From positions 1,459 to 65,458 of IMG/VR virus record IMGVR_UViG_2884693830_000001: DNA of 64,000 nt; one strand, 5' to 3'. This DNA is from a virus. Position 1 is the stretch's first letter. The number at the start of each line of letters is the position of its first letter. The translations under genes and the position numbers were made by a program. Below, piece after piece: positions 38,393 through 50,670 of the stretch. The notes under the pieces were generated by a model that made no database searches, was not told the DNA's origin, and saw only the letters and a program-made list of their open reading frames with translations.

Positions 38393-39418
38393 ATGTCGAC
38401 CCCCGATGCCGTGCACCCCGAATCCAGCACAGTGGGTGCACTGGAACTCCATAGCGGCGGAGAGTTGGAGACCGCAGACGATGCCGCCCGCTGGGCCCGG
38501 CTCGCCGAGCTCGACCAGGCGGCAGAGGCGTTCGAACCCCGCGCCGACAACACCCTGCGCTCATACGCGTCCGACTGGCGAGTGTGGGAACGGTACGTCG
38601 CCGCGGCGGGCATACCGCTGGAGGCCGGCACACCGGGAGCCTTCCTCGGGTTCGTGATCTGGCTCGGCAAGGAGGGCAAGGCGCCGTCGACGATCCAGCG
38701 GAACCTGTACGGCGCGGCGGTGTCCCTGCGGGAACGCGGTGTCGCAGTGCACCCGGACGGCCCGAAGAAGGCGAAGAAGGCGGTCGACGCGCTGGCCCGA
38801 ATGCTGGCCGAGGCGGGGGAGCAGCGGGGCCGCGGCAAGGCCCCGGCGTTGACGGTGATGCAGCTGCGCGCGATGTCGAAGGCGTTGCCGGACACGTTGA
38901 AGGGGCTGCGTGACCGGGCGATCCTCACGGTGGGGTTCGGCATGGCGGCGCGCCGGTCGGAGCTGGCGAACCTCCGTGCCCAGGACGTGGCGGTGACGGA
39001 GAAGGGTCTGCAGGTGTTCGCCCGGTACGGCAAGACCGGCGCCCGCTCGCCCGCGATCAAGAAGGGTGAGAACGAGTGGACGTGCCCCCGGCGCGCCTGG
39101 GTGGCGTGGGCGGCGGCTGCGGACCTCGACCCGGACGGGCCTGCATTCCTGCGCTTCAACCGGCACAAGATGCTGGGCCCGATCACCGCGCAGGGCATCG
39201 GGATCGCCGTCACGGCGGCGGCCGAGGCGGTGGGCTTGGACGGCGTCACCGGGCACAGCATGCGTGCCGGCCTCGCCACGGCGGCGCGGGAGGCCGGGCA
39301 CGACTATCGGACGATCGCTGTCCAGGGCGGATGGGCGCCGAACTCCACCGCGCTGCACGAGTACCTGCGGATCGTGGACCAGTGGGCGGACAACGCCACG
39401 GCGGGAATCGGGATGTGA
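38393..39418 (+). CDS. Cre-like tyrosine recombinase/resolvase
   Basis: N-terminal NTLRSYASDW; catalytic R (ARRSEL), K (GKTG), H-x-x-R (GHSMRAG), W (GGW), Y (HEYL). Confidence 0.9.
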   Translation: MSTPDAVHPESSTVGALELHSGGELETADDAARWARLAELDQAAEAFEPRADNTLRSYASDWRVWERYVAAAGIPLEAGTPGAFLGFVIWLGKEGKAPSTIQRNLYGAAVSLRERGVAVHPDGPKKAKKAVDALARMLAEAGEQRGRGKAPALTVMQLRAMSKALPDTLKGLRDRAILTVGFGMAARRSELANLRAQDVAVTEKGLQVFARYGKTGARSPAIKKGENEWTCPRRAWVAWAAAADLDPDGPAFLRFNRHKMLGPITAQGIGIAVTAAAEAVGLDGVTGHSMRAGLATAAREAGHDYRTIAVQGGWAPNSTALHEYLRIVDQWADNATAGIGM

Positions 39419-39909
39419 GCGCGCCCAGCTGTCACTGTTGACACTTTTCGAGGGTGGGACCAGCTGCTCAAGCTACCCCGCGCGCCATGGCGATGAGCGC
39501 AGAAGGCACAATCCTGCCACGACGGTAGCCGCACTCGCCAAGGCCGTTGTCCGGCCAGTCCTTGTGGACCAGCCGACTCCTCTAGGCCCCCTGATGCTCT
39601 GGCGGCACTGACCCGAGGGCCGTTCCGGCGCCACTCCTCGGAGCAGCCACAATCGCTCAAAGTGTGTGCGAGGGCACAACCTTCGAGTCGTTCCGCTGCT
39701 CAGCGGCAACAAGGCGGCATATATTGGCGCCCGATTCAAAGCGCGTACATCAGTAACGGCCGCCTCATTGTCGCTGGTCGAGAGCGCCCGCCATGTCCAT
39801 CACAAGAATGGCGGTTAAACCACCCTAAGTAACTTGTCAAGCCTTGAAATTGCCCTGGTCAAATACGATGATCCTTCGTGGCCATGCCTCGTCAAGCGGA
39901 AGGATTCTT

Positions 39910-41136
39910 GTGATTAGACGGACACGTTCTGTGTTCAGGATCGTGTTAGCCGCGATCGCCTCGTCCATCATTCTGGCGGGATTACCGGCGACTGCGGCTC
40001 AAGCCCTACCTCCCGATGCCGATGAGATCGCACAGAGAATCCGGCAGGGCAACGCTTCGATCCGCCAAGACACCAGCGCCGGAAAGAAGGCCAGTTCCAA
40101 GCGCAAGGTAAGGTATCTGCAATCGTGCGATGAACTGCGCAAACAGCGTAAAAACTCATCGACGCGAAGCAAGAAAAAGGTCGCATGCAGTACTGGCCCG
40201 AAGATGAGGACAGCAGCCGCCAATCCCGAGGGGGGTGTACCGCCCGGTGTTCCTGACTGGTGCAAGGACGCCGGCCTAGGGTGGTATGCGGCCACCCGCT
40301 TCAACCAGTGCACTTGGCGAACTGAAGGCATCGAGTGGTGGGCTGGCGACTTCGTCGTCGGAGGCATCGACTTCACCCTTTACAACGACATCGTAACCGT
40401 CTGGAATGAGGGGGCGTTCATCTTCGGTGATCACGTCTGGGCCTACAACGAATGGGGGGAATGGGAGCCGGATATGCTCCTTGCCTCCGTCGCGGTCTGC
40501 TCAGCCAACTGCACCATCATAGCTGCGCCACCCAACAAGGACCTTCAGCTGCGTACCTGGATACAATTCAACACCGTAATGCGGTCCACCGTTGCCGCTA
40601 ATGCTGTCGAGACACTGGATCCGGCATCGGGGCTCATATGGGATGGACCGGCATCGGACGATGACGTGGAGTACGTCACCGAGGGCCCGTCCGACCTCCG
40701 CTGCGACAACGGGCTACTCAAGGGCACCGATAACGAGGGATGCGTCATGGCGAACGCCTGGCCTACCCTGACATACAAGGGAAGCGAATGGGACGAGATA
40801 GCACCCCACATAAGCCGATCTCAAGCAGCTGGGTCTCCTGGAACACCGGGAGTCGAGCCTCTTCATCGAATGTACGACGATGCTGATGCCGCGCAGAACC
40901 GCAGGGATGCGTGCAGCTTCATTACTGGCTCCCGTCCGCCCAACTCAGACTGCGACGAGTACCCCATGGCCCACACGTACGAGGGTGCCTACACCTGTGG
41001 CTGTGATGACTTCACCGTAGAATGGGTCGACTCAAGTCAGAACCAGCTGGCCGGACAACGGTACGGTGACTTCGGCCGTGAACAGAGGCTTCTGGACAAC
41101 GATCCGTTCTTCGTCTACGCGGATCTCAGCTCGTAG
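39910..41136 (+). CDS. Secreted protein with a C-terminal NucA/NucB-type nuclease domain
   Basis: Signal peptide ending AAQA; LHR, NRRDAC, CDEYPMAHTYEG, QNQLAG; lower GC. Confidence 0.8.
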   Translation: MIRRTRSVFRIVLAAIASSIILAGLPATAAQALPPDADEIAQRIRQGNASIRQDTSAGKKASSKRKVRYLQSCDELRKQRKNSSTRSKKKVACSTGPKMRTAAANPEGGVPPGVPDWCKDAGLGWYAATRFNQCTWRTEGIEWWAGDFVVGGIDFTLYNDIVTVWNEGAFIFGDHVWAYNEWGEWEPDMLLASVAVCSANCTIIAAPPNKDLQLRTWIQFNTVMRSTVAANAVETLDPASGLIWDGPASDDDVEYVTEGPSDLRCDNGLLKGTDNEGCVMANAWPTLTYKGSEWDEIAPHISRSQAAGSPGTPGVEPLHRMYDDADAAQNRRDACSFITGSRPPNSDCDEYPMAHTYEGAYTCGCDDFTVEWVDSSQNQLAGQRYGDFGREQRLLDNDPFFVYADLSS

Positions 41137-41152
41137 ACAGTAGGATTCCCTT

Positions 41153-41686
41153 GTGGGTAGCGCTGACACGTCATTTCGATCGCATGTCCGGTTGTCCTAC
41201 CATCAGATTTACCTCTTGGACCCGGATGAACTTCTGCCTCAGCCGCCACCGGCCTTCCCCAACGGGCTCATCGGTTTGGACGACGAACCGGATGGGGCGA
41301 CCATCCTCACCGGCATTGCGATGGGCTGTGTGGACATGACAGTGCAACTCGCCAGGAAGGGCCCCCCTGTAGACCTTGACTCGTGGGAGGAAGTGGTTGA
41401 GGTCTCCATCGAGTCCACAACCGGATCGCTGTTTGTATGTGGGCTCGATGGAGACCTTCCGGAGCATCTGCCGAACTTGGCTACAGAAGGCGCAGGATTC
41501 TATCGGTTGCGAGTGCACGCTACCGGTCGCGACACCAACGTCAATGGGATAGCCGAGACTCCAACTGAACACTATTTGATCACTGCGTGGCCAGCCCCTC
41601 CCGAGGCGGAGATCGTATACAAAGCGTCTGACGCTTACGGTGAAGAGGTTCGTCACCGGCCGCGTAGACGCCCACCTGGCACGTGA
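41153..41686 (+). CDS. Putative immunity protein for the upstream nuclease
   Basis: Immediately downstream, acidic, no signal peptide; YHQIYL, WEEVVEVSI, YRLRVHATGRD, EHYLITAWP. Confidence 0.65.
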   Translation: MGSADTSFRSHVRLSYHQIYLLDPDELLPQPPPAFPNGLIGLDDEPDGATILTGIAMGCVDMTVQLARKGPPVDLDSWEEVVEVSIESTTGSLFVCGLDGDLPEHLPNLATEGAGFYRLRVHATGRDTNVNGIAETPTEHYLITAWPAPPEAEIVYKASDAYGEEVRHRPRRRPPGT

Positions 41687-42492
41687 CTTGTTCACCGACT
41701 ACTGCGGTAGCACACTGACCGAGGCCAAGTCCAAGCCCCAGCGCTGCTCACCAGGTTCCATGGTGGAAACCGCCGCTGGCTGCTCCGCTCGGCCCCGATG
41801 GTCTGGATGGAGTTTGGCATCGGGGAACCGCCACGTGGGTTTCAGCCGAGGCGAGTCTCGCACCGAAGGTGGCGAATTGATTCCGCCTGGATGGCACTGG
41901 CATCCCCTCGGCTGTCCGGCGCACTTGCCAGCCCACCACGACCGAGTTGTGATCGTCACCGACGAGCAGTCCCGGCCACGCTGGCTGCCGTCGAACGGCT
42001 ACGGCTGCGGCAGCGAGATACGGACCGACACGTGGCCCCGCAGTGCAGCGGCTCCTACGGGGCTTGGCATCACGGGACAGCGCTCCCAGCCCGGGGCGTG
42101 GCCATCAAGCGATGTCTGCATCAACAAGATCACCCCCGTCTCACCGGTTTCCGGCGTGGCGTGCTTGCGGTACTTGACAACAATGCATATGCTGCGCGCC
42201 AGAGTGGGATACGCATGCCAAAGTGCTTGCGTGTTCGCATATGCGCGTCTCTGAGCCCACGTGTGTCGCCCGTTCGCGATGCCCTCCATGGCTCTCCGAC
42301 CCCCCAAGAGTCGATCTTTCCTGAGGCGCTCTGAGACGCGCACACACATTGGAAGGCCCCGCCCCCGCAGATGGGACGGGGCCTTCCCCATGTCCACCCG
42401 GTCCCCGGCGCGGCCCTGCGCCGCACGGGGGAGGCGCGGAAAACGAGCCGGGGGCCGGGTCACCTTCACCCCTCACCGCCAGGAGGCCCCTC

Positions 42493-43548
42493 ATGTACTG
42501 GCACACCCGCGACAACATCGAGCAGGAGCGCCGCGAGCGTGGCCGCCTGGCCGACCGTGGCTTCTGGCTCCACGACGCGCCCCGGCTCACCCTGGGGTGC
42601 CGCATCTTCGGTCACAAGCCGGTCGTCGACGGGTACGAGGCCCACGGGCGCGGCCTGCCCGCAAGCCGCTGGGTCACCTGCGACCGGTGCGGTGTCCGCC
42701 CCGACCCGCAAGGCCACCTCGACCCGGACGAATGGCCCATCGGCGTCCACTACGACGGCCTGTACGAGACGCCGGAGCGGCACGTCCTCACCACCGAGCA
42801 GATCCGGACGGCCATGGCCCGCGTCCGCGCCGGCCTCCGGCTGCCCGGCCCCTGGCCGGACAAGCCCACCGGCGCGATCGGCGGACAGCTGATCGTCGGC
42901 CGTACCTTCGGCGGGTTCTCCGTCGAGGTGGAAGTCGGGTGCGCCGGCGCCGAGAACACGCTGGCCGCGCACCTGCGGATCAACCCGCTGGGTGCGCTCT
43001 ACCTGCACACTGAGGGGTTCGGCACGTGGCTGCAGCGCCGCTTGGTCCCGACCGGCTACACGTCGCGGCAGATCAGCCTGTCCATCGACAGGTGGGCGAT
43101 CCACACGAAGCTGTGGGCCCGCGAAGGCGAATGGTCCCGGGATGACCCGTGGTGGATGCACGGCCGCCTCTCCTTCGACCTGGTGGAAAAGCTGCTCGGC
43201 CCCAAGCGGTACAGCTACCGCACCGTCGACGGCCCGGTCATGGGCTGGATCATGATGCCGGAGGGCGACAGCCACCAGGTGCAGCTCACCCTGAAGCGGG
43301 TCCGGCTGGGCAGGCCGCGCGCCGAGTGGGCCGCGAAGTACCACTGGGACGTCGAGTGGGAGTCGGCCACACCGATCGTCACCTGCCCCGGCAGAGGCGG
43401 CACCACCGCGGCGTCGGTGCGGGTGCCCGACCAGGCCGTGGAAGCCCACTCCTGGGACGTCCTCGCCTGCACGCTGGCCGCGATGAAGCTGAGCGAGCAG
43501 CGCGCCGCGTACGGCTACCAGCCTGGGAAGGGAGACAGCGCCAGATGA
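42493..43548 (+). CDS. Hypothetical protein
   Basis: AGGAGG RBS; GCRIFGHK...CDRCG. Confidence 0.7.
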   Translation: MYWHTRDNIEQERRERGRLADRGFWLHDAPRLTLGCRIFGHKPVVDGYEAHGRGLPASRWVTCDRCGVRPDPQGHLDPDEWPIGVHYDGLYETPERHVLTTEQIRTAMARVRAGLRLPGPWPDKPTGAIGGQLIVGRTFGGFSVEVEVGCAGAENTLAAHLRINPLGALYLHTEGFGTWLQRRLVPTGYTSRQISLSIDRWAIHTKLWAREGEWSRDDPWWMHGRLSFDLVEKLLGPKRYSYRTVDGPVMGWIMMPEGDSHQVQLTLKRVRLGRPRAEWAAKYHWDVEWESATPIVTCPGRGGTTAASVRVPDQAVEAHSWDVLACTLAAMKLSEQRAAYGYQPGKGDSAR

Positions 43549-43730
43549 GCGCCACCATCACCCGCTGGTCCTTCACCGCGACCATCAACGACAGCGACCA
43601 CCTGCCCGAGGACGTGAGCTACGACGAGGTGACGGCCGAGATCGAAGAGGTCGTCACCGACGCGCTCACCGCCTGGTACAACGAGCGCGGCCACCAACTG
43701 CTTGCCTGCGAACCGGTCGTCGCGTGGTAG
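43545..43730 (+). CDS. Small hypothetical protein
   Basis: ATGA overlap. Confidence 0.6.
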   Translation: MSATITRWSFTATINDSDHLPEDVSYDEVTAEIEEVVTDALTAWYNERGHQLLACEPVVAW

Positions 43731-44314
43731 GCCTCGTGATCCCCGCTGTTCTGGGCCTGCGCGTCGGCTCGCAGGAGCTCACCCTGGCCACATTCGACCT
43801 GCCGATCACGGCGCAGCCCGCCGGCGACTCCGGCGAGGCGAACTTCGCCCTGGACGTCCCCGAGTTCCGCAGCCTCCTCGCCGCCGCGCTCCGCGAAGCC
43901 GCGGCAGAGGTGGAGAAGATCCCCCATGATGATTTCCGCACCCCTGAGGACCCCCGCATGAAGGTGTACGTCACCACGATCGCCCGCGTCTGCCACGAGG
44001 CGAACCGTGTCCTGCAGATCGCGGCGGGTGAGGAGCCGTCACCGCACTGGCCGGACGCGCCCGACTGGCAGCAGGAGTCCGCGATCAAGGGCGTCGAGGC
44101 TGCCCTGTCCGGTGCGACCCCGCAGCACCTCCACGAGTCGTGGTGCGCGGCGAAGCTGGCCGACGGTTGGACGTACGGCCCGGTCAAGGACGCGGCTGCG
44201 CGCACCCATCCGTGCCTAGTGCCGTACGGCGACCTGCCCGAAGCCCAGCGAGTCAAGGACCACCTGTTCCACGCGATCGTCCGCGCCTTCCCCGTGGCCA
44301 GGACGGAGACCTGA
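43724..44314 (+). CDS. RyR-domain protein
   Basis: HESWCAAKLADGWTYGPVKDAAARTHPCLVPYGDLPEAQRVKD. Confidence 0.85.
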   Translation: MVGLVIPAVLGLRVGSQELTLATFDLPITAQPAGDSGEANFALDVPEFRSLLAAALREAAAEVEKIPHDDFRTPEDPRMKVYVTTIARVCHEANRVLQIAAGEEPSPHWPDAPDWQQESAIKGVEAALSGATPQHLHESWCAAKLADGWTYGPVKDAAARTHPCLVPYGDLPEAQRVKDHLFHAIVRAFPVARTET

Positions 44315-44934
44315 TGCAGCGCTACATCAAGTACATGCCGCTGCAGGACATCCCGTCCGCGACGCGGAACGCCAAGGATCATGACCTGGCCAGCATCCGC
44401 CGCTCGATCGAGACGTTCGGGTGCGTTGTCGCTGGAGAGATCGACGAGCGCACCGGCCGGCTCGTCGCCGGTCACGGCCGCAAAGAGGTCCTGATGGCGA
44501 TGTGCGCCGAAGGCGTCACCCCTCCGGAGGGCGTGCAGCTGGCCGAGGACGGCACGTGGCTCGCGGCGCTCGTCCGCGGTTGGCGGTCACGCTCCGACGC
44601 GGACGCCGAGGCGTACATGATCGCTCATAACCGCACCAACGAGCGGGGCGGTTGGGACCAGGACGTGCTGATCAAGTCCCTGGCGGACATTCAGCAGGCG
44701 GACTCGTCCCTGCTCGCGGCCACGGGCTACAGCTCCGACGAGCTGGCCGACCTCGAAGAGGCTCTCGCCGTGGATGCTCATGTGGCCGTGGGCGTGCACG
44801 ACGACGGCGGCGAGGTCGACGACAACACCGCCACCGGCCCGTCGCCGGAGGAGTTCCAGGAGTTCGACGACGACATCGCCACCGACTACCAGTGCCCGCG
44901 CTGCGGTTACGAATGGAGCGGCAAGCCCCGATGA
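44314..44934 (+). CDS. ParB/Srx-like protein of the DNA-modification-associated type, with a C-terminal Zn ribbon
   Basis: RNAKDH..SIETFG..GRLVAGHGR..AYMIAHNR..GGWD; YQCPRCGYEW. Confidence 0.8.
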   Translation: MQRYIKYMPLQDIPSATRNAKDHDLASIRRSIETFGCVVAGEIDERTGRLVAGHGRKEVLMAMCAEGVTPPEGVQLAEDGTWLAALVRGWRSRSDADAEAYMIAHNRTNERGGWDQDVLIKSLADIQQADSSLLAATGYSSDELADLEEALAVDAHVAVGVHDDGGEVDDNTATGPSPEEFQEFDDDIATDYQCPRCGYEWSGKPR

Positions 44935-46022
44935 CCACGCCGCCGTACCACGTACCGAGCATGGCTGAGGTGCGGGCGGTGCCGTGGAACGGCTTCAACG
45001 GCATCAGCACCTTCTCCGGGGGCGGCGGCTCGTCGCTCGGCTACCGCATGGCCGGCCTCCGCATGCTGTGGGCGAGCGAGTTCATCCCGGCCGCCGCCGA
45101 CACGTACCGAGCCAACACCGCGCCGCACACCCACCTGGACACCCGCGACATTCGCAAGGTCACCGCCAAGGACATCCTCGACCGGACCGGCCTGAAGGCC
45201 GGGGAGCTCGACCTGCTGGACGGGTCGCCGCCGTGCGCCGCGTTCTCGACCTCCGGCAAGCGAGAGGCCGGGTGGGACACCGTCAAGACCTACTCGGACA
45301 CCAGGCAGCGGGTCGACGACCTGTTCTTTGAGTTCACCCGCCTCCTGGGCGACCTGCAGCCGAGGGTGTTCGTCGCGGAGAACGTCGCCGGGCTGGTGCA
45401 GGGCACCGCGAAGGGCTACTTCAAGGAAATCCTGGCCGCGCTGCGCAAGCCCGGATACCGCGTCACGGCGCGGCTGCTCGACGCGCAATGGCTCGGCGTG
45501 CCGCAGGCCAGGCGACGGCTCATCTTCGTCGGCGTCCGCGACGACCTCGACATGGAGCCGGTCCACCCGGCGCCGCTGCCGTACCGGTACACGGTGCGCG
45601 ACGCGGTCGGCGATCTGCCCGGCGCGTTCGACGACCTGCAGGAAGACCCGGAGACGGGGCAGCCGCTCACCCTGCGCGGCTACGCCCTCGAAAAGTACTG
45701 GCACCAGCTGCGCCCAGGCCAGGGCCACCGGGTGCGGACCAGCCTCAAGAGGCTGGCCTGGGACCAGCCAGCGCACACGATCGTGGCCAGGGCAGGCACA
45801 GCGGGCACCGCCGCCATCACCCACCCCGACCACCCGCGCTACCCAACCCTCGCCGAACTGCGCAGGTTGGGAGGCTTTCCGGACGACTTCACGCTCACCG
45901 GCAACTACTACCGCAGGTGGGAGAGGATCGGCCGCGCGGTTCCGCCCGTGATGATGGCGCGGATCGCCGCGACCATCCGCGACCAGGTGCTCGTCCCATT
46001 GCGTGACGCGGGGAGGATCTGA
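44931..46022 (+). CDS. C5 cytosine DNA methyltransferase-family enzyme, predicted carboxymethyltransferase
   Basis: FSGGGG (I), GSPPC (IV), ENVAGL (VI), PQARRRL (VIII); motif X reads IGRAVPP instead of GNAVPP. Confidence 0.9.
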   Translation: MTTPPYHVPSMAEVRAVPWNGFNGISTFSGGGGSSLGYRMAGLRMLWASEFIPAAADTYRANTAPHTHLDTRDIRKVTAKDILDRTGLKAGELDLLDGSPPCAAFSTSGKREAGWDTVKTYSDTRQRVDDLFFEFTRLLGDLQPRVFVAENVAGLVQGTAKGYFKEILAALRKPGYRVTARLLDAQWLGVPQARRRLIFVGVRDDLDMEPVHPAPLPYRYTVRDAVGDLPGAFDDLQEDPETGQPLTLRGYALEKYWHQLRPGQGHRVRTSLKRLAWDQPAHTIVARAGTAGTAAITHPDHPRYPTLAELRRLGGFPDDFTLTGNYYRRWERIGRAVPPVMMARIAATIRDQVLVPLRDAGRI

Positions 46023-47437
46023 TGTGCGGTGTCGTCGCCGGTCTCGGGAAACTCGACCTGGCCCCGGCCGTGGGCGCGCTCAAGCACCGAGGCCCCGATG
46101 CGGCCCGGATGGTCACGGTGGCTGGCGTGCACCTCGGTCATACCCGGCTCGCGGTGCAGGACCTCGATCCGCGGTCGGACCAGCCGTTCCGTTCCGGGCC
46201 GGTCACGATCGCGTACAACGGCGAGATCTACAACGCCGCGCAGCTGCGCCAGGCCGTGGAGGAGCGCGACCCGGGCCGGGCCTGGGCGACGACCGGCGAC
46301 ACGGAGGCCCTGGCCGCCGCGCTCGCCGTGCTCGGCCCTCAGCGGGCGCTGCCGCTGGTCGACGGCATGTTCGGCGTGGCGTGGGCGGACGACCGGCGGC
46401 CCGGCGTGCTTCACGTCGCCCGTGACCGGCATGGCGAGATCCCGCTGCATCTGCACCTGGCGCAGCCCGTCATGGCCGCGTCGGAGCTGAAGGCGTTCGC
46501 CGCGGTGGGCCGCCCCATGGCCGCCCACCTGATCGCGGACGTCCCGGCTGGCCAGTGGGGCACGATCCACGGTGGTCGCGCCTCCTGGCAGCGGTTCCAC
46601 AGCCAGCGGTGCACGCCGGTGGGCTACACGCTGGCGCAGGCGTCGACCCGGTTGAAGGCTGCGCTCGCGCAGGCCGTGCGGCGGCGGCTCGTCGCTGATG
46701 TGCCGGTGTGCGCGCTGCTGTCCGGGGGGATCGACTCGGCCGCCATTACGTACGAGCTGGCGCAGCACGTGCCGGGCTTGGTCGCCTACACCGCCCGCAT
46801 GGATCCCCGGTCGCGGGACCTGCGGTGCGCGCGCGAGACCGCCGAGCATCTCGGGATCGAGCTGGTTGAGGTCGACATCCCGGCGCCGACCGCTGACGAT
46901 CTGGCCCGCGTGGTGTGCGTGATCGAGATGCCGTACAAGGCGCAGGTGGAGATCGGTTGGGCGTGTCTGCTGCTCGCCGAGCGGATCCGGGCGGACGGCT
47001 TCAAGGTCACGTACTCCGGTGAGGGGTCCGACGAGCTGTGGGCGTCGTACGGCTTCGCCTACCACGGGCTCAAGACGGCCGACTGGCACATCTACCGGCG
47101 CGACCTGATGGCCGCCCAGAGCAGGAAAAACTTCCCCCGCGTGAACAAGACGTTCATGGCGTACGGCGTCGAGGGGCGGCTGCCGTTCTGCGACCCGGAC
47201 GTGGTCGATCTGGCGCTGTCGCTGCAGCAGCACGCCGTGGCGGACGGCAAGGCCCACCCCAAGGCCGTACTCCAGCGCGCGTACACCGGACTGCTGCCCG
47301 ACGCCGTGGTGCGTAGGCCGAAGGTCGCCTTCCAAGACGGGCTGGGACTCAAGGACGCGATCAGGAGCGTCCTGCCGAACCCGACCCGCTTCTACCGGGC
47401 CGAGTACCAACGTCTCGTCAGGAACAGCAGAGCATGA
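46022..47437 (+). CDS. Asparagine synthetase (glutamine-hydrolysing)-like amidotransferase
   Basis: N-terminal MCG nucleophile, HRGPD, HTRL, YNGEIYN, LLSGGIDS PP-loop, SGEGSDEL, GVEGRLPF. Confidence 0.92.
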   Translation: MCGVVAGLGKLDLAPAVGALKHRGPDAARMVTVAGVHLGHTRLAVQDLDPRSDQPFRSGPVTIAYNGEIYNAAQLRQAVEERDPGRAWATTGDTEALAAALAVLGPQRALPLVDGMFGVAWADDRRPGVLHVARDRHGEIPLHLHLAQPVMAASELKAFAAVGRPMAAHLIADVPAGQWGTIHGGRASWQRFHSQRCTPVGYTLAQASTRLKAALAQAVRRRLVADVPVCALLSGGIDSAAITYELAQHVPGLVAYTARMDPRSRDLRCARETAEHLGIELVEVDIPAPTADDLARVVCVIEMPYKAQVEIGWACLLLAERIRADGFKVTYSGEGSDELWASYGFAYHGLKTADWHIYRRDLMAAQSRKNFPRVNKTFMAYGVEGRLPFCDPDVVDLALSLQQHAVADGKAHPKAVLQRAYTGLLPDAVVRRPKVAFQDGLGLKDAIRSVLPNPTRFYRAEYQRLVRNSRA

Positions 47438-48165
47438 GTAACGACATCGCGGAGCAGTTCGACACGGGCGGTTGGCGGTTCACCGCCGATGTCGCCGAGG
47501 TGTTCGACGACCACGTGCGGGCCAGCGTGCCGCACTACGACGTGATCCAGGACCTCGTGGCCGAGACGACCGACTGGCTCGTCCCGGCGGGCGGCCTGGT
47601 CGCGGATCTCGGCGCATCGACCGGCGCGTCGGCGCGGCGCATCCTCCAGCGGCACCCCACCCGAGACATCCGAATGGTGCTGTACGACCAGCAGCCCGCC
47701 ATGCTCGACCAGGCCGCCGCGGAGCTGAGCAAGCTCGACGGTGAGCACGACGTCACCTTGAGCGCGACCCGCATCCAGTATGGGCCGCTGGTTCACGAGA
47801 ACGCTGATCTCACCTTGGCCTTGTTCACGCTGCAGTTCCTCCCGCAGGAGGAACGCGTGACCGCGCTGCGGCTCGCGCGGGAGTGCTCGGCGCAGAGCGG
47901 CGCGCTGATCGTCGCGGAGAAGATCCGCGCCGTCGACTCGAGGTGGGCGGAGATCGGGAACGACGTCGCGCACGACTACAAGGCGGCGCACGGCATCACG
48001 GACGCGGCGATCCGGGCCAAGGCCCGCGCGCTGCGCGGCGTGCTCCGGCCGTACCCGCAGCAGACGACGATGCAGGCCATGGCCGACGCCGGATGGCACG
48101 CGCCCGAGGTCCTGTTCCGGTGGCATTCGTGGGCGGTGATCGGGGCGTTCGCCTCAGCCCAGTAA
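47434..48165 (+). CDS. CmoA-like carboxy-S-adenosyl-L-methionine synthase
   Basis: WRFTADVAEVFDDHVRASVPHY, DLGASTG, FTLQFL, LIVAEK, K..L.GVL are the CmoA-family layout. Confidence 0.8.
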   Translation: MSNDIAEQFDTGGWRFTADVAEVFDDHVRASVPHYDVIQDLVAETTDWLVPAGGLVADLGASTGASARRILQRHPTRDIRMVLYDQQPAMLDQAAAELSKLDGEHDVTLSATRIQYGPLVHENADLTLALFTLQFLPQEERVTALRLARECSAQSGALIVAEKIRAVDSRWAEIGNDVAHDYKAAHGITDAAIRAKARALRGVLRPYPQQTTMQAMADAGWHAPEVLFRWHSWAVIGAFASAQ

Positions 48166-48180
48166 CGAGGGGGGTGACCG

Positions 48181-48573
48181 ATGTGGTTCGACGAGCAGCC
48201 GCCCCCCGACTGGTCGATCGAGTTACCGCCCGGCCTGGACCTACTGAACTCGAATCAGCGGCTCCACCCCATGGTCAAGGCCCAGATGACGAAGCGGCTG
48301 CGCCGTGCTGGCTACCGGGCGTCCATGGAGATCGGCCTGCCCCGGCTGGAACGGGTGTACGTCGTCGGCGAGCTCCGGCCGAACGACCGGCGCAGGCGCG
48401 ACCCGGGCAACTGGTATCCCTCGGCGAAGGCCGCGGTGGACGGCGCGATGACCGACGCCGGCGTGCTGGTGGACGACGACGCCGAACACCTGGTCGGCCC
48501 GGACATGCGGCTCGGGAGGGTCGTGAAGGGCGGCCAGCTCGTCCTGCACATCTGGCGCGGCACCGACACCTGA
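48181..48573 (+). CDS. RusA-like Holliday junction resolvase
   Basis: LLNSN, RRRDPGNWYPSAKAAVDG..DAGVLVDDD. Confidence 0.8.
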   Translation: MWFDEQPPPDWSIELPPGLDLLNSNQRLHPMVKAQMTKRLRRAGYRASMEIGLPRLERVYVVGELRPNDRRRRDPGNWYPSAKAAVDGAMTDAGVLVDDDAEHLVGPDMRLGRVVKGGQLVLHIWRGTDT

Positions 48574-48898: not shown

Positions 48899-49378
48899 AT
48901 GGTTTCCAGCAGAAAGCGAGCGTCGGCCGCCGTCGTTGCTGAGCGTAGGGCCAAGGCGGTACAGATGCGGATCGCAGGTATCTCGCCGACGATCATCGCG
49001 GAGAACCTCGGCTACTCCGGCGGCTCGGCGGCCGTCGTCAAGGACATCACCCGCTCGATGCAGAAGGCCGCCAAGGCCGAGCACATCGCGTCGGAGCACC
49101 TCCTACAGATCGAGATTGACCGGCTGGACCGGCTCATGGCCGCCGTCTGGGCCAAGGCGCTGTCCGGTGACGTGAAGGCCGTCGAGCAGGCCGAGAAGCT
49201 AATCGCCCGCCGGTGCTCGCTGCTGGGCCTGGATCTGATCAACCGCAACGGGTCGGAGAACTCGGACATCGCCAGCCTGCTGGGCAACCTGTTCGCCAGC
49301 CTGCAGGCCCGGCACGGCCAGGACGAGGTGACGGTCGAGGTGGTCGACGCTATCGAGGCCGGCGAGGACAGCCCGTGA
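48899..49378 (+). CDS. terS: Terminase small subunit
   Basis: HTH (MRIAGIS..IAENLGY), RLDRL...GDVKAV...RRCSLLGLD; directly before terL. Confidence 0.8.
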   Translation: MVSSRKRASAAVVAERRAKAVQMRIAGISPTIIAENLGYSGGSAAVVKDITRSMQKAAKAEHIASEHLLQIEIDRLDRLMAAVWAKALSGDVKAVEQAEKLIARRCSLLGLDLINRNGSENSDIASLLGNLFASLQARHGQDEVTVEVVDAIEAGEDSP

Positions 49379-50670
49379 GTCTGGCGGTCGTCACGCTGTC
49401 GCCCGCGCAGGAGCGCAGCATCGCGGAGTCGACGGCGCGGATCAACGTGTGGACCGGCAGCGTACGGTCGGGCAAGACGATCGCTTCGCTGTTCCGGTTC
49501 TTGATCTACGTGACGCAGGCGCCGCGCGGCGGCCACCTGGTGATCGTCGGCAAGACGGCGGACACGATCGCGCGCAACGTGTTCGAGCCGCTGATGGACC
49601 CGAGCTTGACGGGTCCGGTGGCGCGGCGGATCTTCTACACGCGCGGCGCGGTCACCGCGAACATCCTCGGCCGCCGCGTCGAGATCATTTCTGCGAACGA
49701 CGTCCGCTCGGAGTCCCGCCTACGAGGTCTGACCTGCGCGGGCGCGTACGTAGATGAGGCGACCCTGATCCCGGAGGCGTTCTGGGACCAGCTGCTGGCC
49801 CGCTGCTCGGTGCCAGGCGCGATGATCTTCGCGACGACGAACCCGGACGCGCCCAACCACTGGCTGCGCAAGAGGTTCTTGCTCCGCTCCCACGAGCTGG
49901 ACCTGCGCTGGTGGCACTTCACCCTCGACGACAACCCGTCGTTGGACCCGGTGTACGTGGCCAACCTCAAGGCCGAGTACACCGGCCTCTGGTACCGCCG
50001 GTACGTGCTCGGCGAGTGGTGCATGGCCGAAGGCGCGATCTTCGACATGTGGGACCCGGATCGGCACATCGTAGACGAACTGCCGCTCATGGAACGGTGG
50101 CTCGGCGTCGGCATCGACTACGGCACCGTCAACCCGTTCTCGGCCCTGCTCGCCGGGGTGTCCATCCCGGACGCGGACGGGCAGCGGCGCATCTACCTGT
50201 CCTCCGAATGGCGGTGGGACTCCCGCCTGGAACGGCGGCAGCTGACCGACTCGGAGTACTCGTCAAAGATCACCGAATGGCTGGACACCGTGCCGGACAC
50301 GTACGGGCCCGGCACGATGGGCCTCCGGCCGGAGTGGATCATTGTCGACCCCAGCGCCGCCAGCTTCGTGACCCAGCTCCTCCACGACGGGCTGCTGCCG
50401 CAGCTCGGCGACAACGCCGTGCTCGACGGCATCCGCACCGTCTCCAACCTGATCGCGAGCGACCTGCTGCGGGTGCATCGCTCCTGCCATGGATGGCTCG
50501 GCGAAGTCGGCTCTTACAGCTGGGACGACCGGAAAGCGGAGAAGGGTGACGACGCCCCGGTGAAGCTCGACGACCACAGCATCGACGCCAGCCGGTACAT
50601 CCTGCACACCACGCAGGCCGTCTGGACGCCGCTGATGGAGCCCGTGCCCGACTACTGGCGCAAGCGATAA
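49375..50670 (+). CDS. terL: Terminase large subunit (PBSX family)
   Basis: GSVRSGKT, YVDEA, TTNPD, GIDYG, VDPSA, DDHSIDA. Confidence 0.93.
   Translation: MSLAVVTLSPAQERSIAESTARINVWTGSVRSGKTIASLFRFLIYVTQAPRGGHLVIVGKTADTIARNVFEPLMDPSLTGPVARRIFYTRGAVTANILGRRVEIISANDVRSESRLRGLTCAGAYVDEATLIPEAFWDQLLARCSVPGAMIFATTNPDAPNHWLRKRFLLRSHELDLRWWHFTLDDNPSLDPVYVANLKAEYTGLWYRRYVLGEWCMAEGAIFDMWDPDRHIVDELPLMERWLGVGIDYGTVNPFSALLAGVSIPDADGQRRIYLSSEWRWDSRLERRQLTDSEYSSKITEWLDTVPDTYGPGTMGLRPEWIIVDPSAASFVTQLLHDGLLPQLGDNAVLDGIRTVSNLIASDLLRVHRSCHGWLGEVGSYSWDDRKAEKGDDAPVKLDDHSIDASRYILHTTQAVWTPLMEPVPDYWRKR

Follow-up and report, generated by a model that had tools for sequence, protein, structure and literature searches.

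The locus described here lies in a window of 64,000 nucleotides (the whole stretch of DNA that was analyzed), part of IMG/VR virus record IMGVR_UViG_2884693830_000001. The record, 95 kb long, represents a provirus integrated into a Nonomuraea-like genome. Four genes on the plus strand, spanning 44314-48165, follow one another closely enough to be linked through overlaps of 1 or 4 bases. Direct reading of the sequence gives the junction motifs TGATG at 44312-44316, ATGA at 44931-44934, TGATG at 46020-46024, and ATGA at 47434-47437. An earlier note had described four genes with such overlaps upstream of a RusA/terminase block, and the coordinates, strand, and junctions were all confirmed. The genes of the locus and those that follow it are as listed here.

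44314..44934, plus strand: ParB-like accessory protein, 206 aa (PHROG 620, ParB-like)
44931..46022, plus strand: homologue of CmoX-type DNA cytosine C5-carboxymethyltransferases, 363 aa (PF00145, 8YF3)
46022..47437, plus strand: homologue of glutamine-type CmoY, an AsnB-family amidotransferase/ATP-dependent amide ligase, 471 aa (Pfam GATase_6/7 and Asn_synthase)
47434..48165, plus strand: homologue of CmoA-like carboxy-SAM synthases, 243 aa (TIGR00740, PHROG 4752)
48181..48573, plus strand: RusA-like resolvase (PHROG 34, E 5e-21)
49213-50670, downstream of RusA: large terminase

Shine-Dalgarno-like GGAGG or AGGA runs are found upstream of the four starts. The GC3 of the called frames is 0.88-0.93, compared to 0.76 for a long antisense shadow ORF, which argues that the called frames are the real ones. 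Terminator-like sites within 41-51 kb show no excess over chance (3 found, 3.1 expected). The RusA-like gene, 15 bases downstream, is outside the modification module and is the first gene of the packaging block.

The product of the second gene matches C5-cytosine methyltransferase models (PF00145, E 3e-49; TIGR00675, E 2e-46), and its best match in the PDB is 8YF3 (E 2e-62), the crystal structure of SpCmoX. That enzyme belongs to the CmoA/CmoX/CmoY system of Synechococcus phage S-B43, which has been characterized by biochemistry as well (Yang et al., Nat Commun 2025, PMC12783734). Motif IV of the homologue reads G-S-P-P-C, with the cysteine at C102 (codon 45234-45236), and aligns with S95-C98 of 8YF3. 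Motif X reads I-G-R-A-V-P-P, with R335 (45933-45935) at the position where Asn is usual; in one search output R335 aligns with R350 of 8YF3 (V-G-R-M-V-P-P), and HaeIII has I-G-N-A-V-P there. Motif VI (E150-N151-V152) and motif VIII (Q-x-R-x-R) are also present. The homologue thus bears both published CmoX signature features, SPPC and an Arg replacing the motif-X Asn, and the same pair occurs in all eight of the eight CmoX homologues that adjoin relatives of the ligase. The motif-X change from Asn to Arg is the published determinant, and wild-type SpCmoX takes carboxy-SAM only (PMC12783734). A basic residue in place of the motif-X Asn likewise lets a C5-methyltransferase use carboxy-SAM in the engineered M.MpeI N374K carboxymethyltransferase (cited in PMC12783734), although in that enzyme, a CG-specific mutant made in the laboratory, the residue is Lys, whereas the Arg of the window's CmoX is natural.

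The fourth gene product covers 222 of the 239 positions of the CmoA model TIGR00740 (E 3e-33) but, at 115.3 bits, misses its cut-off of 193.3. The assayed enzyme of S-B43, SpCmoA, scores 115.6 bits and is also under 193.3, so this cut-off is too strict for phage enzymes; judged by this score, the window's protein matches the CmoA model as well as the biochemically validated one. It also matches PHROG 4752 (E 5e-52) and PDB entries 4GEK, 1IM8, and 4IWN (E about 1e-21), and its identity to assayed CmoAs is just 25-28%. The alignment to E. coli CmoA, of the CmoA/CmoB tRNA cmo5U34 pathway (4GEK, 4IWN), is full length, and the SAM-binding residues, for which Tyr39, Asp62, Gly64, Asp89, and Phe137 of the E. 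coli enzyme served as references, are kept as Y35, D58, G60, D85, and F135, each invariant in 120 clade members. The window differs from the E. coli pathway in having no CmoB partner, in the displacement of Arg199, and in its presumed acceptor, a DNA cytosine rather than tRNA.

In E. coli CmoA, Arg199 pairs with the carboxy-SAM carboxylate through a salt bridge (PMC3663124). The corresponding helix in the window's protein is K196-A-R198-A-L-R201 (codons 48019-48036), compared to K-R199-S-M-L-E in E. coli, so that the strictly aligned residue is Ala197, with Arg198 at +1 and R201 at +4. An ambiguity at this position (KARAL versus KRSML) had been flagged in the earlier note. The discrepancy is real, and SpCmoA also has no Arg there, its residues at the aligned, +1, and +4 positions being Glu, Lys, and Arg; both proteins fit the pattern K-x-[KR]-x-L-R. 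R201, one helical turn past the aligned position, is shared by every one of the 120 clade members. Sister modules, in which CmoX and CmoY are 53-57% identical to those of the window, have a canonical CmoA of the K-R type in the corresponding position, an argument for functional equivalence of the two CmoA types. As judged by these alignments, the putative carboxy-SAM synthases of such modules form two distant lineages, and both the window's lineage and SpCmoA lack an Arg at the aligned Arg199 position.

The same data bear on a plainer reading, that the locus pairs an ordinary 5-methylcytosine methyltransferase with an unrelated SAM-dependent methyltransferase and brings about no carboxymethylation. 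Pfam gives generic domains only (DNA_methylase and Methyltransf_25), and the CmoA-like protein is under the NCBIfam cut-off and without Arg199 in the strict alignment, all of which would fit. We regard this reading as extremely unlikely, however, given the Asn-to-Arg determinant of an enzyme family whose wild-type member uses carboxy-SAM only (PMC12783734), the failure of assayed SpCmoA to reach the TIGR00740 cut-off by the same margin, and the substitution of canonical CmoA for the window's type in sister modules.

The gene arrangement is conserved. We compared 10 loci with a ligase relative of at least 52% identity: directly upstream of the ligase gene there is a C5-methyltransferase gene in all 10, and just downstream there is a CmoA-type methyltransferase in 9. 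The tenth locus, L117, is on a fragmented contig, where the downstream position is taken by a 93-aa piece of a methyltransferase and a 219-aa gene with no annotation. In the seven lineages where it was tested or has a Pfam match, a ParB-like gene lies ahead of CmoX, every complete related locus has such a homologue upstream of CmoX, and terminase genes follow in eight of the related loci. The earlier note had proposed a search for the four-gene synteny; the gene order recurs across the 10 related loci, fragmentary downstream in the case of L117. Viral AsnB-like genes at about 30% identity lack such neighbors. An RyR gene and a 399-aa gene occur in a single relative only, and the module has no further modification gene that is conserved.

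The 95-kb provirus record yielded no match to CmoB. Nonomuraea sp. B19D2 carries a 92% relative of the module in a 12.3-Mb genome, in which the best CmoB score is 29 bits against a cut-off of 275, with none reaching it, and in which the prophage copy is the sole CmoA-family match. The lack of a visible cmoB, from which it had been proposed that carboxy-SAM is probably consumed by the C5 DNA transferase, is thus borne out in both, and together with the CmoX signature and the CmoA-model match it supports that proposal at the level of sequence.

The third gene product has the two-domain architecture of E. coli AsnB (1CT9, E 5e-39) and shares the catalytic residues of both active sites. Its glutaminase site comprises the Ntn nucleophile Cys2 (46025-46027; the protein starts M-C-G), R42, N66, E68, and D93, and its synthetase site comprises the PP-loop S-G-G-I-D-S at 234-239 (46721-46738), S-G-E-G-S-D-E at 332-338, and K434. 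Among 120 clade members, 116 have the catalytic Cys right after the start codon, and each of the glutamine-site and PP-loop motifs is retained by 114-120. This conservation indicates that the glutaminase is under selection, and an intact glutaminase Cys and glutamine site would make sense only with ammonia as the nucleophile. The ligase is 65% identical over 465 residues, its full length, to A0A7T0Q3R0, which is gp124 of Streptomyces phage TurkishDelight and the representative of the glutamine-type CmoY cluster. Since membership in the network of Yang et al. has a threshold of about 30% identity (PMC12783734), the ligase belongs by sequence to this cluster. Ammonia use has been predicted for the cluster, from which Yang et al. 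got no soluble TurkishDelight protein (PMC12783734).

The resemblance to AsnB raises the possibility that the protein is an auxiliary metabolic asparagine synthetase acting on free aspartate, leaving the DNA with 5-carboxymethylcytosine. All of the AsnB synthetase-site motifs are kept, including the acidic S-G-E-G-S-D-E cluster, to which the aspartyl-AMP alpha-amino group binds in asparagine synthetase, so a free-aspartate substrate is possible as far as the motifs go. Nonetheless, the protein is about 80 residues shorter than AsnB at the C terminus and scores below both AsnB equivalog cut-offs (TIGR01536, 244 versus 267.1 bits; NF006949, 227.5 versus 499). It also falls in a separate phage/prophage clade that spans 52-92% identity, compared to no more than 36% for its nearest cellular AsnB relatives. 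Furthermore, it is embedded in a DNA-modification operon, with start/stop overlaps in the window and with the C5-methyltransferase and CmoA-type neighbors noted above, and native S-B43 DNA holds the ligated form only (PMC12783734). We consider a free-asparagine synthetase quite improbable.

Comparison with S-B43 shows how far the precedent extends. In both phages, genes for the same three enzyme families are clustered and run in one direction, and both encode a CmoX with SPPC and Arg (350 in SpCmoX), a phage CmoA without CmoB, and an Asn-synthetase-fold ATP-dependent ligase adjoining CmoX. The order is A-Y-X in S-B43, however, compared to ParB-X-Y-A in the window, and CmoX and CmoA of S-B43 are just 40% and 25% identical to the window's. 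The host of S-B43 is a cyanobacterium and its target is GC, whereas the host of the window is a high-GC actinobacterium. The ligases differ most: SpCmoY (271 aa) lacks a glutaminase domain and attaches glycine, whereas the 471-aa ligase of the window has this domain intact and is therefore expected to use ammonia. The kinship between the two is only distant (28% over 160 residues). The cyanophage precedent to which the earlier note pointed is real in S-B43 (PMC12783734), but it does not extend to amidation with ammonia.

Because the assayed homologue attaches glycine and the family has several ligase clusters with different pockets (PMC12783734), the module might make 5-carboxymethylcytosine and finish with something other than a simple primary amide, through another nucleophile or further processing such as a QueC-like dehydration. 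A weak QueC match over the PP-loop region of the ligase (E 5e-3 in Pfam, 5e-4 in NCBIfam) points the same way, but it reflects the shared PP-loop and is far under the cut-off. The clade-wide conservation of the glutaminase and the absence of any conserved extra modification gene, the RyR and 399-aa genes being confined to one relative, also speak against such an end product, which we consider unlikely. It is also conceivable that amidation comes first, with the AsnB-like enzyme amidating carboxy-SAM, an aspartate-like small molecule, and CmoX then transferring a carbamoylmethyl group. Small molecules are the usual substrates of AsnB relatives, and the retained aspartate-like pocket would fit the amino-acid end of carboxy-SAM. 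This order is very improbable in our view, since the CmoX Arg that pairs with the donor carboxylate is kept and is invariant in all relatives, and SpCmoY works on 5cxmC already within DNA (PMC12783734).

A relative isolated in culture is the 93.6-kb phage TurkishDelight (MW291017), whose genes 122-125 are the same four, identically ordered and next to the genome's packaging end. Identity to the window is 59% for CmoX (gp123), 65% for CmoY, and 64% for CmoA; at the DNA level, 80% of the operon aligns at about 70% identity. TurkishDelight differs in that the variable target-recognition region of its CmoX is longer by about 40 residues, that a second ParB-like gene lies upstream, and that it is a cultured phage rather than an integrated provirus. 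As the glutamine-type representative in print is thus a Streptomyces phage protein, the actinophage lineage, which the earlier note thought might be novel, is not new; the chemistry and the lineage have both already been predicted (PMC12783734).

In the ParB-like protein, a putative ParB-N-like domain at the N terminus holds the invariant residues H54 and R56 (GHGR). After it come a linker of acidic character and, at the C terminus, the tail C-P-x-C-x-Y-x-W-S-G-K-P (codons about 44893-44931), which is conserved in an alignment of six homologues. It matches PHROG 620 (ParB-like, E 9e-29). Pfam ParB_N (PF02195) gave no match even at E 0.1, and homologues match it weakly. An AF2 model (pLDDT 65) had ParB, KorB, and Noc as top Foldseek hits, with E about 7e-3 and TM about 0.4. 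The protein is a conserved accessory and may serve in DNA loading or targeting.

Taken together, these features make it likely that the locus is a CmoA-CmoX-CmoY post-replicative cytosine hypermodification module of a prophage, in a glutamine-dependent variant. The CmoA-like enzyme would convert SAM and host prephenate to carboxy-SAM, which the actinobacterial host itself presumably does not make. CmoX would flip out the target cytosine for attack on C6 by Cys102 and would transfer the carboxymethyl group from carboxy-SAM to C5, with Arg335 gripping the carboxylate, to give 5-carboxymethylcytosine in double-stranded DNA. CmoY would then hydrolyze glutamine at the Cys2 glutaminase site, adenylate the base carboxylate at the PP-loop site, and join it with the ammonia to yield a neutral primary amide. 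On balance, we favor this conversion of 5-carboxymethylcytosine in DNA to a predicted 5-carbamoylmethylcytosine by the window's CmoY; the same amidation had been proposed before, and the intact Cys2, the PP-loop, and the cluster membership support it. We found no report of 5-carbamoylmethylcytosine in any DNA in the literature searched. Phage Mu Mom makes N6-carbamoylmethyladenine, in which a DNA base likewise bears a carbamoylmethyl group for an anti-restriction purpose, but at adenine N6 rather than cytosine C5 and through an unrelated enzyme family and chemistry. Since the genes are translationally coupled and directly precede RusA and terminase, phage DNA is probably modified once it has been replicated, either ahead of packaging or while packaging proceeds. 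The likely gain would be protection against host restriction and other DNA-targeting defenses.

If this is correct, the prophage is a further carrier of the carboxymethylcytosine route, which would extend to Nonomuraea and other Streptosporangiales. The finding has modest but real practical value. The Nonomuraea orthologue and roughly 120 sequence clusters of relatives provide alternative proteins where the published attempt failed, the TurkishDelight protein being insoluble, and a first demonstration of the predicted cytosine C5 primary amide could draw on them. The two CmoA lineages help to annotate phage CmoA genes, which are now labelled "methyltransferase" or "tRNA methyltransferase" in databases. 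Should such prophages be induced, their DNA should withstand some restriction enzymes and may give odd readings when sequenced by nanopore or bisulfite-type methods.

The earlier note had placed four overlapping genes just upstream of a RusA/terminase block, and both the genes and their setting were recovered as described. The module comprises the following features:

44314-44934, plus strand, ParB-like gene, first gene of the module
44931-46022, plus strand, C5-cytosine methyltransferase homologue (CmoX), second gene
46022-47437, plus strand, glutamine amidotransferase/asparagine-synthase gene (CmoY ligase), third gene
47434-48165, plus strand, CmoA-like gene, last gene

The junctions read from the sequence are TGATG, ATGA, TGATG, and ATGA, and a RusA-like resolvase gene begins 15 bases past the last stop, followed by the large terminase gene. 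On inspection of the sequence, purine-rich, ribosome-binding stretches precede the starts of the four genes. Third-position GC is 0.88 to 0.93 in the module frames, compared to 0.76 in a long antisense ORF, which identifies the called frames as coding. A promoter and terminator scan around the module gave nothing above chance. The provirus record that holds the window is 95 kb long, is rated 96% complete, and lies on an 11.3-Mb contig; relatives of window proteins at least 90% identical occur in Nonomuraea species.

Two genes upstream of the module, encoding a 399-aa protein (42349-43548) and a RyR-domain protein (43724-44314), were considered as core parts and rejected. Each is found only in comparison locus L006 and is absent from L024, the 92% relative; since neither is conserved, the core module consists of four genes. 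The RyR-domain protein has 196 aa (PF02026, E 2e-12), and the stop codon of its gene shares one base with the start of the ParB-like gene. Farther upstream, the GC content of window 39844-42300 is about 0.60, compared to 0.68 to 0.70 in the flanks, and the ORFs there, including one of 430 aa at 39844-41136, show only a weak GC signal by codon position and match nothing in Pfam or PHROG; this segment may be a recently acquired insert. A tyrosine-recombinase/integrase-like gene (38393-39418; PHROG 216, PHROG 1) is located mid-provirus, not at an end.

A pathway of this kind is known from Synechococcus phage S-B43 (Yang et al., Nat Commun 2025, PMC12783734). Its CmoA (SpCmoA) produces carboxy-SAM; its CmoX (SpCmoX), a C5-methyltransferase homologue, transfers the carboxymethyl group onto cytosine C5 at GC sites; and its CmoY (SpCmoY) is a ligase of the asparagine-synthetase fold that attaches glycine (PMC12783734). 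CmoX candidates were defined by an S-P-P-C motif together with an arginine (R350), in place of the motif-X Asn, that touches the carboxylate of carboxy-SAM; thousands of them were found in IMG/VR, UniProt, and MGnify, many of these lie near genes for CmoA, a ligase, and a ParB-domain protein, and no non-C5 carboxymethyltransferase candidates were found by those authors (PMC12783734). The second-largest ligase cluster, represented by A0A7T0Q3R0, has a glutamine-hydrolyzing domain, and use of ammonia was proposed for it (PMC12783734). The earlier note had mentioned a comparable cyanophage pathway and had suggested that the novelty might be the actinophage lineage; S-B43 supplies the precedent, but an actinophage representative is already published. 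Everything from the system and its chemistry to the ParB association and the actinophage representative appeared in print in December 2025. The survey took in IMG/VR v4 (PMC12783734), the kind of collection that holds this record, and the locus may therefore already be among its candidates. Literature searches turned up neither a follow-up to that paper nor a description of the amide base 5-carbamoylmethylcytosine, and no paper mentioning Streptomyces phage TurkishDelight was among the top matches.

The four-gene synteny was sought elsewhere in ten independent loci with a ligase 52 to 92% identical to that of the window: TurkishDelight, one IMG/VR provirus, Nonomuraea sp. B19D2, Streptomyces sp. 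NBC_01207, and six metagenomic or draft contigs. In all ten, the ligase gene is immediately preceded by a C5-methyltransferase gene, and in nine it is closely followed by a gene for a CmoA-type methyltransferase; in the tenth, a fragmented contig (L117), that place shows just a 93-aa methyltransferase fragment and a 219-aa gene with no annotation. The ParB-like companion pointed out in the earlier note precedes CmoX in seven lineages where this was tested or a Pfam hit was present, and terminase or other packaging genes follow the module in 8 of the 10 loci. Locus scans with single proteins found two close relatives only, among viral and genome contigs; the remaining matches in those scans, AsnB-family genes about 30% identical, those in viral contigs included, had no CmoX or CmoA neighbors.

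The best solved-structure match of the window CmoX is SpCmoX (PDB ID 8YF3, E 2e-62), with HaeIII and Dnmt1 far behind at about 1e-24. In the 8YF3 alignment, G-S-P-P-C of the window protein is paired with the SpCmoX S-P-P-C, and I-G-R-A-V-P-P with V-G-R-M-V-P-P, the Arg of which is R350 by counting along the alignment; the same position in the HaeIII alignment is the Asn of I-G-N-A-V-P. The corresponding window residues are C102 and R335, and E150-N151-V152 and Q-x-R-x-R are intact. Both published CmoX signature features are present in the window protein, and S-P-P-C and G-R-x-V-P-P occur in all eight CmoX genes checked among related loci. Plain methylation, without carboxymethyl transfer, is at odds with the motif-X Arg and is highly improbable. 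The Streptomyces sp. NBC_01207 locus (L104, CP108554.1, 2603-5001) has two tandem CmoX-type genes, of 361 and 415 aa, upstream of a glutamine-type ligase. The presence of S-P-P-C and G-R-A-V-P-P in each of the two suggests that a single module has two carboxymethylation specificities.

The target sequence of the window CmoX is not predictable, since its variable target-recognition region aligns poorly to SpCmoX and differs in length among relatives, and composition shows no trace of it: GC, GGCC, GCGC, CCGG, and CGCG are not depleted in the window (0.88 to 1.01 of expectation). GATC occurs 411 times in the window, compared to the 190 that base composition predicts (ratio 2.2).

The CmoA-like protein covers 222 of the 239 positions of the NCBIfam model TIGR00740 (E 3e-33) with 115.3 bits, below the cut-off of 193.3. 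SpCmoA, whose activity is biochemically validated, reaches 115.6 bits, and thus the cut-off does not separate active from inactive phage enzymes. In E. coli CmoA, Arg199 contacts the carboxylate through a salt bridge (PMC3663124). The earlier note had cautioned that this residue was ambiguous here, and rightly so: the aligned residue is Ala197, in K-A-R-A-L-R-G compared to K-R-S-M-L-E-N in E. coli. SpCmoA, with K-E-K-E-L-R-D, likewise has no Arg at the aligned position and has a basic residue at +1 and an Arg at +4. Among 120 members of the window CmoA clade, none has Arg at the aligned position, 114 have Arg or Lys at position 198, and R201, one helical turn past the Arg199 position, and K196 are invariant, as are the SAM-site residues Y35, D58, G60, D85, and F135. 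From this pattern we infer that the carboxylate contact may have been taken over by R201 or R198. In two sister modules (L106 and L107), CmoX and CmoY are 53 to 57% identical to those of the window, but the gene in the CmoA slot (L106 6358-7089, L107 4248-4943) is only about 29% identical to 47434-48165 and encodes a protein of the canonical K-R type (K-R-x-S-L-E, about 160 bits), not of the window K-A-R-A-L-R-G type. The slot looks like a case of gene replacement inside a conserved module, and two distant CmoA lineages in the same place are what would be expected of a position that has to be filled by a carboxy-SAM synthase.

As the earlier note had remarked, cmoB is missing; none was found in the 95-kb provirus. 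Nonomuraea sp. B19D2, whose module ligase is 92% identical to that of the window, provided a 12.3-Mb genome in which the best CmoB-model matches reached 29 bits against a cut-off of 275 and the sole CmoA-family match was the prophage copy. With neither a CmoB nor a second CmoA, the host cmo5U tRNA pathway is apparently absent, so that no user of carboxy-SAM other than CmoX is evident. Gordonia phage Evaa (L003, OP434461.1, 1-3952) has a CmoA-like protein 49% identical to that of the window, directly upstream of the terminase, and no PF00145 C5-methyltransferase in its whole 61-kb genome. Its CmoA-like gene adjoins a ParB-like gene and a gene for a 511-aa protein (gp2) annotated as a methyltransferase, in which a ParB-N domain is joined to some 400 residues that belong to no known family (PHROG 5475, unknown function); it matches neither a Pfam methyltransferase domain nor any PDB entry. 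This protein could be a different consumer of carboxy-SAM.

The ParB-like protein of the window matches PHROG 620 (E 9e-29) and has no Pfam match. In six aligned homologues, a variable acidic linker connects an N-terminal domain, in which H54 and R56 (G-H-x-R) are invariant, to a well-conserved C-terminal tail, F-x-x-F-D-x-x-I-x-T-x-[YFH]-x-C-P-x-C-x-Y-x-W-S, which continues with G-K-P in all but one. The tail, which in the window protein ends with C-P-x-C-x-Y-x-W-S-G-K-P (window 44893-44931), persists where the remaining protein is only 28 to 30% identical. Its single CxxC does not by itself amount to a full zinc ribbon, and the tail may serve as an interaction peptide or contribute one half of a metal site shared between subunits. 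The structure predicted from the six-sequence alignment was a weak model (pLDDT 65), and Foldseek placed CDP-bound ParB, KorB, and Noc first at borderline significance, adding little to the PHROG match. ParB-N domains are often fused to methyltransferases. One may speculate that the ParB-like protein of the window loads or targets the modification enzymes on DNA.

The window ligase begins M-C-G, and thus the Ntn glutaminase nucleophile is present; R42, N66, E68, and D93 align with the AsnB glutamine-site residues R49, N74, E76, and D98. The synthetase site has the PP-loop S-G-G-I-D-S and the S-G-E-G-S-D-E and K-x-x-F-x-D-G motifs. By exact-sequence look-up, A0A7T0Q3R0 is gp124 of TurkishDelight, and its 65% full-length identity places the window ligase in the published glutamine-type cluster, whereas SpCmoY, a glycine ligase of 271 aa without a glutaminase domain, is only remotely similar. 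A search of 5.8 billion proteins gave at least 120 sequence clusters 52 to 92% identical to the window ligase, all about 460 to 470 aa, from Nonomuraea, Microbispora, Streptosporangium, Streptomyces, and metagenomes. Cys directly follows the start codon in 116 of 120 clade members, and the glutamine-site and PP-loop motifs are kept in 114 to 120 of them. Such strong conservation of the glutaminase implies that the ligase uses glutamine-derived ammonia as its nucleophile, in which case a primary amide would result. A product of another kind is unlikely, and amidation of carboxy-SAM before its transfer to DNA is very unlikely. The acidic S-G-E-G-S-D-E cluster retained here holds the alpha-amino group of aspartyl-AMP in human asparagine synthetase (PMC6748925), as would suit a metabolic asparagine synthetase, but the ligase scores below both NCBIfam AsnB equivalog cut-offs, and we consider that role quite unlikely. 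As a conjecture, the alpha-amino pocket of a DNA-amidating ligase might be occupied by the N4 amino group of 5-carboxymethylcytosine, near the carboxymethyl arm.

The substrate and product of the ligase are the weakest link of the proposed chain, in part because the acidic cluster is kept; Yang et al. could not obtain a soluble enzyme of the A0A7T0Q3R0 cluster (PMC12783734). The earlier note's observation and interpretation both stand. The module very probably belongs to the CmoA/CmoX/CmoY family, and the full chain, which we regard as reasonably likely, would have the CmoA-like enzyme supply carboxy-SAM, CmoX use it to make 5-carboxymethylcytosine, and the ligase amidate that base to 5-carbamoylmethylcytosine.
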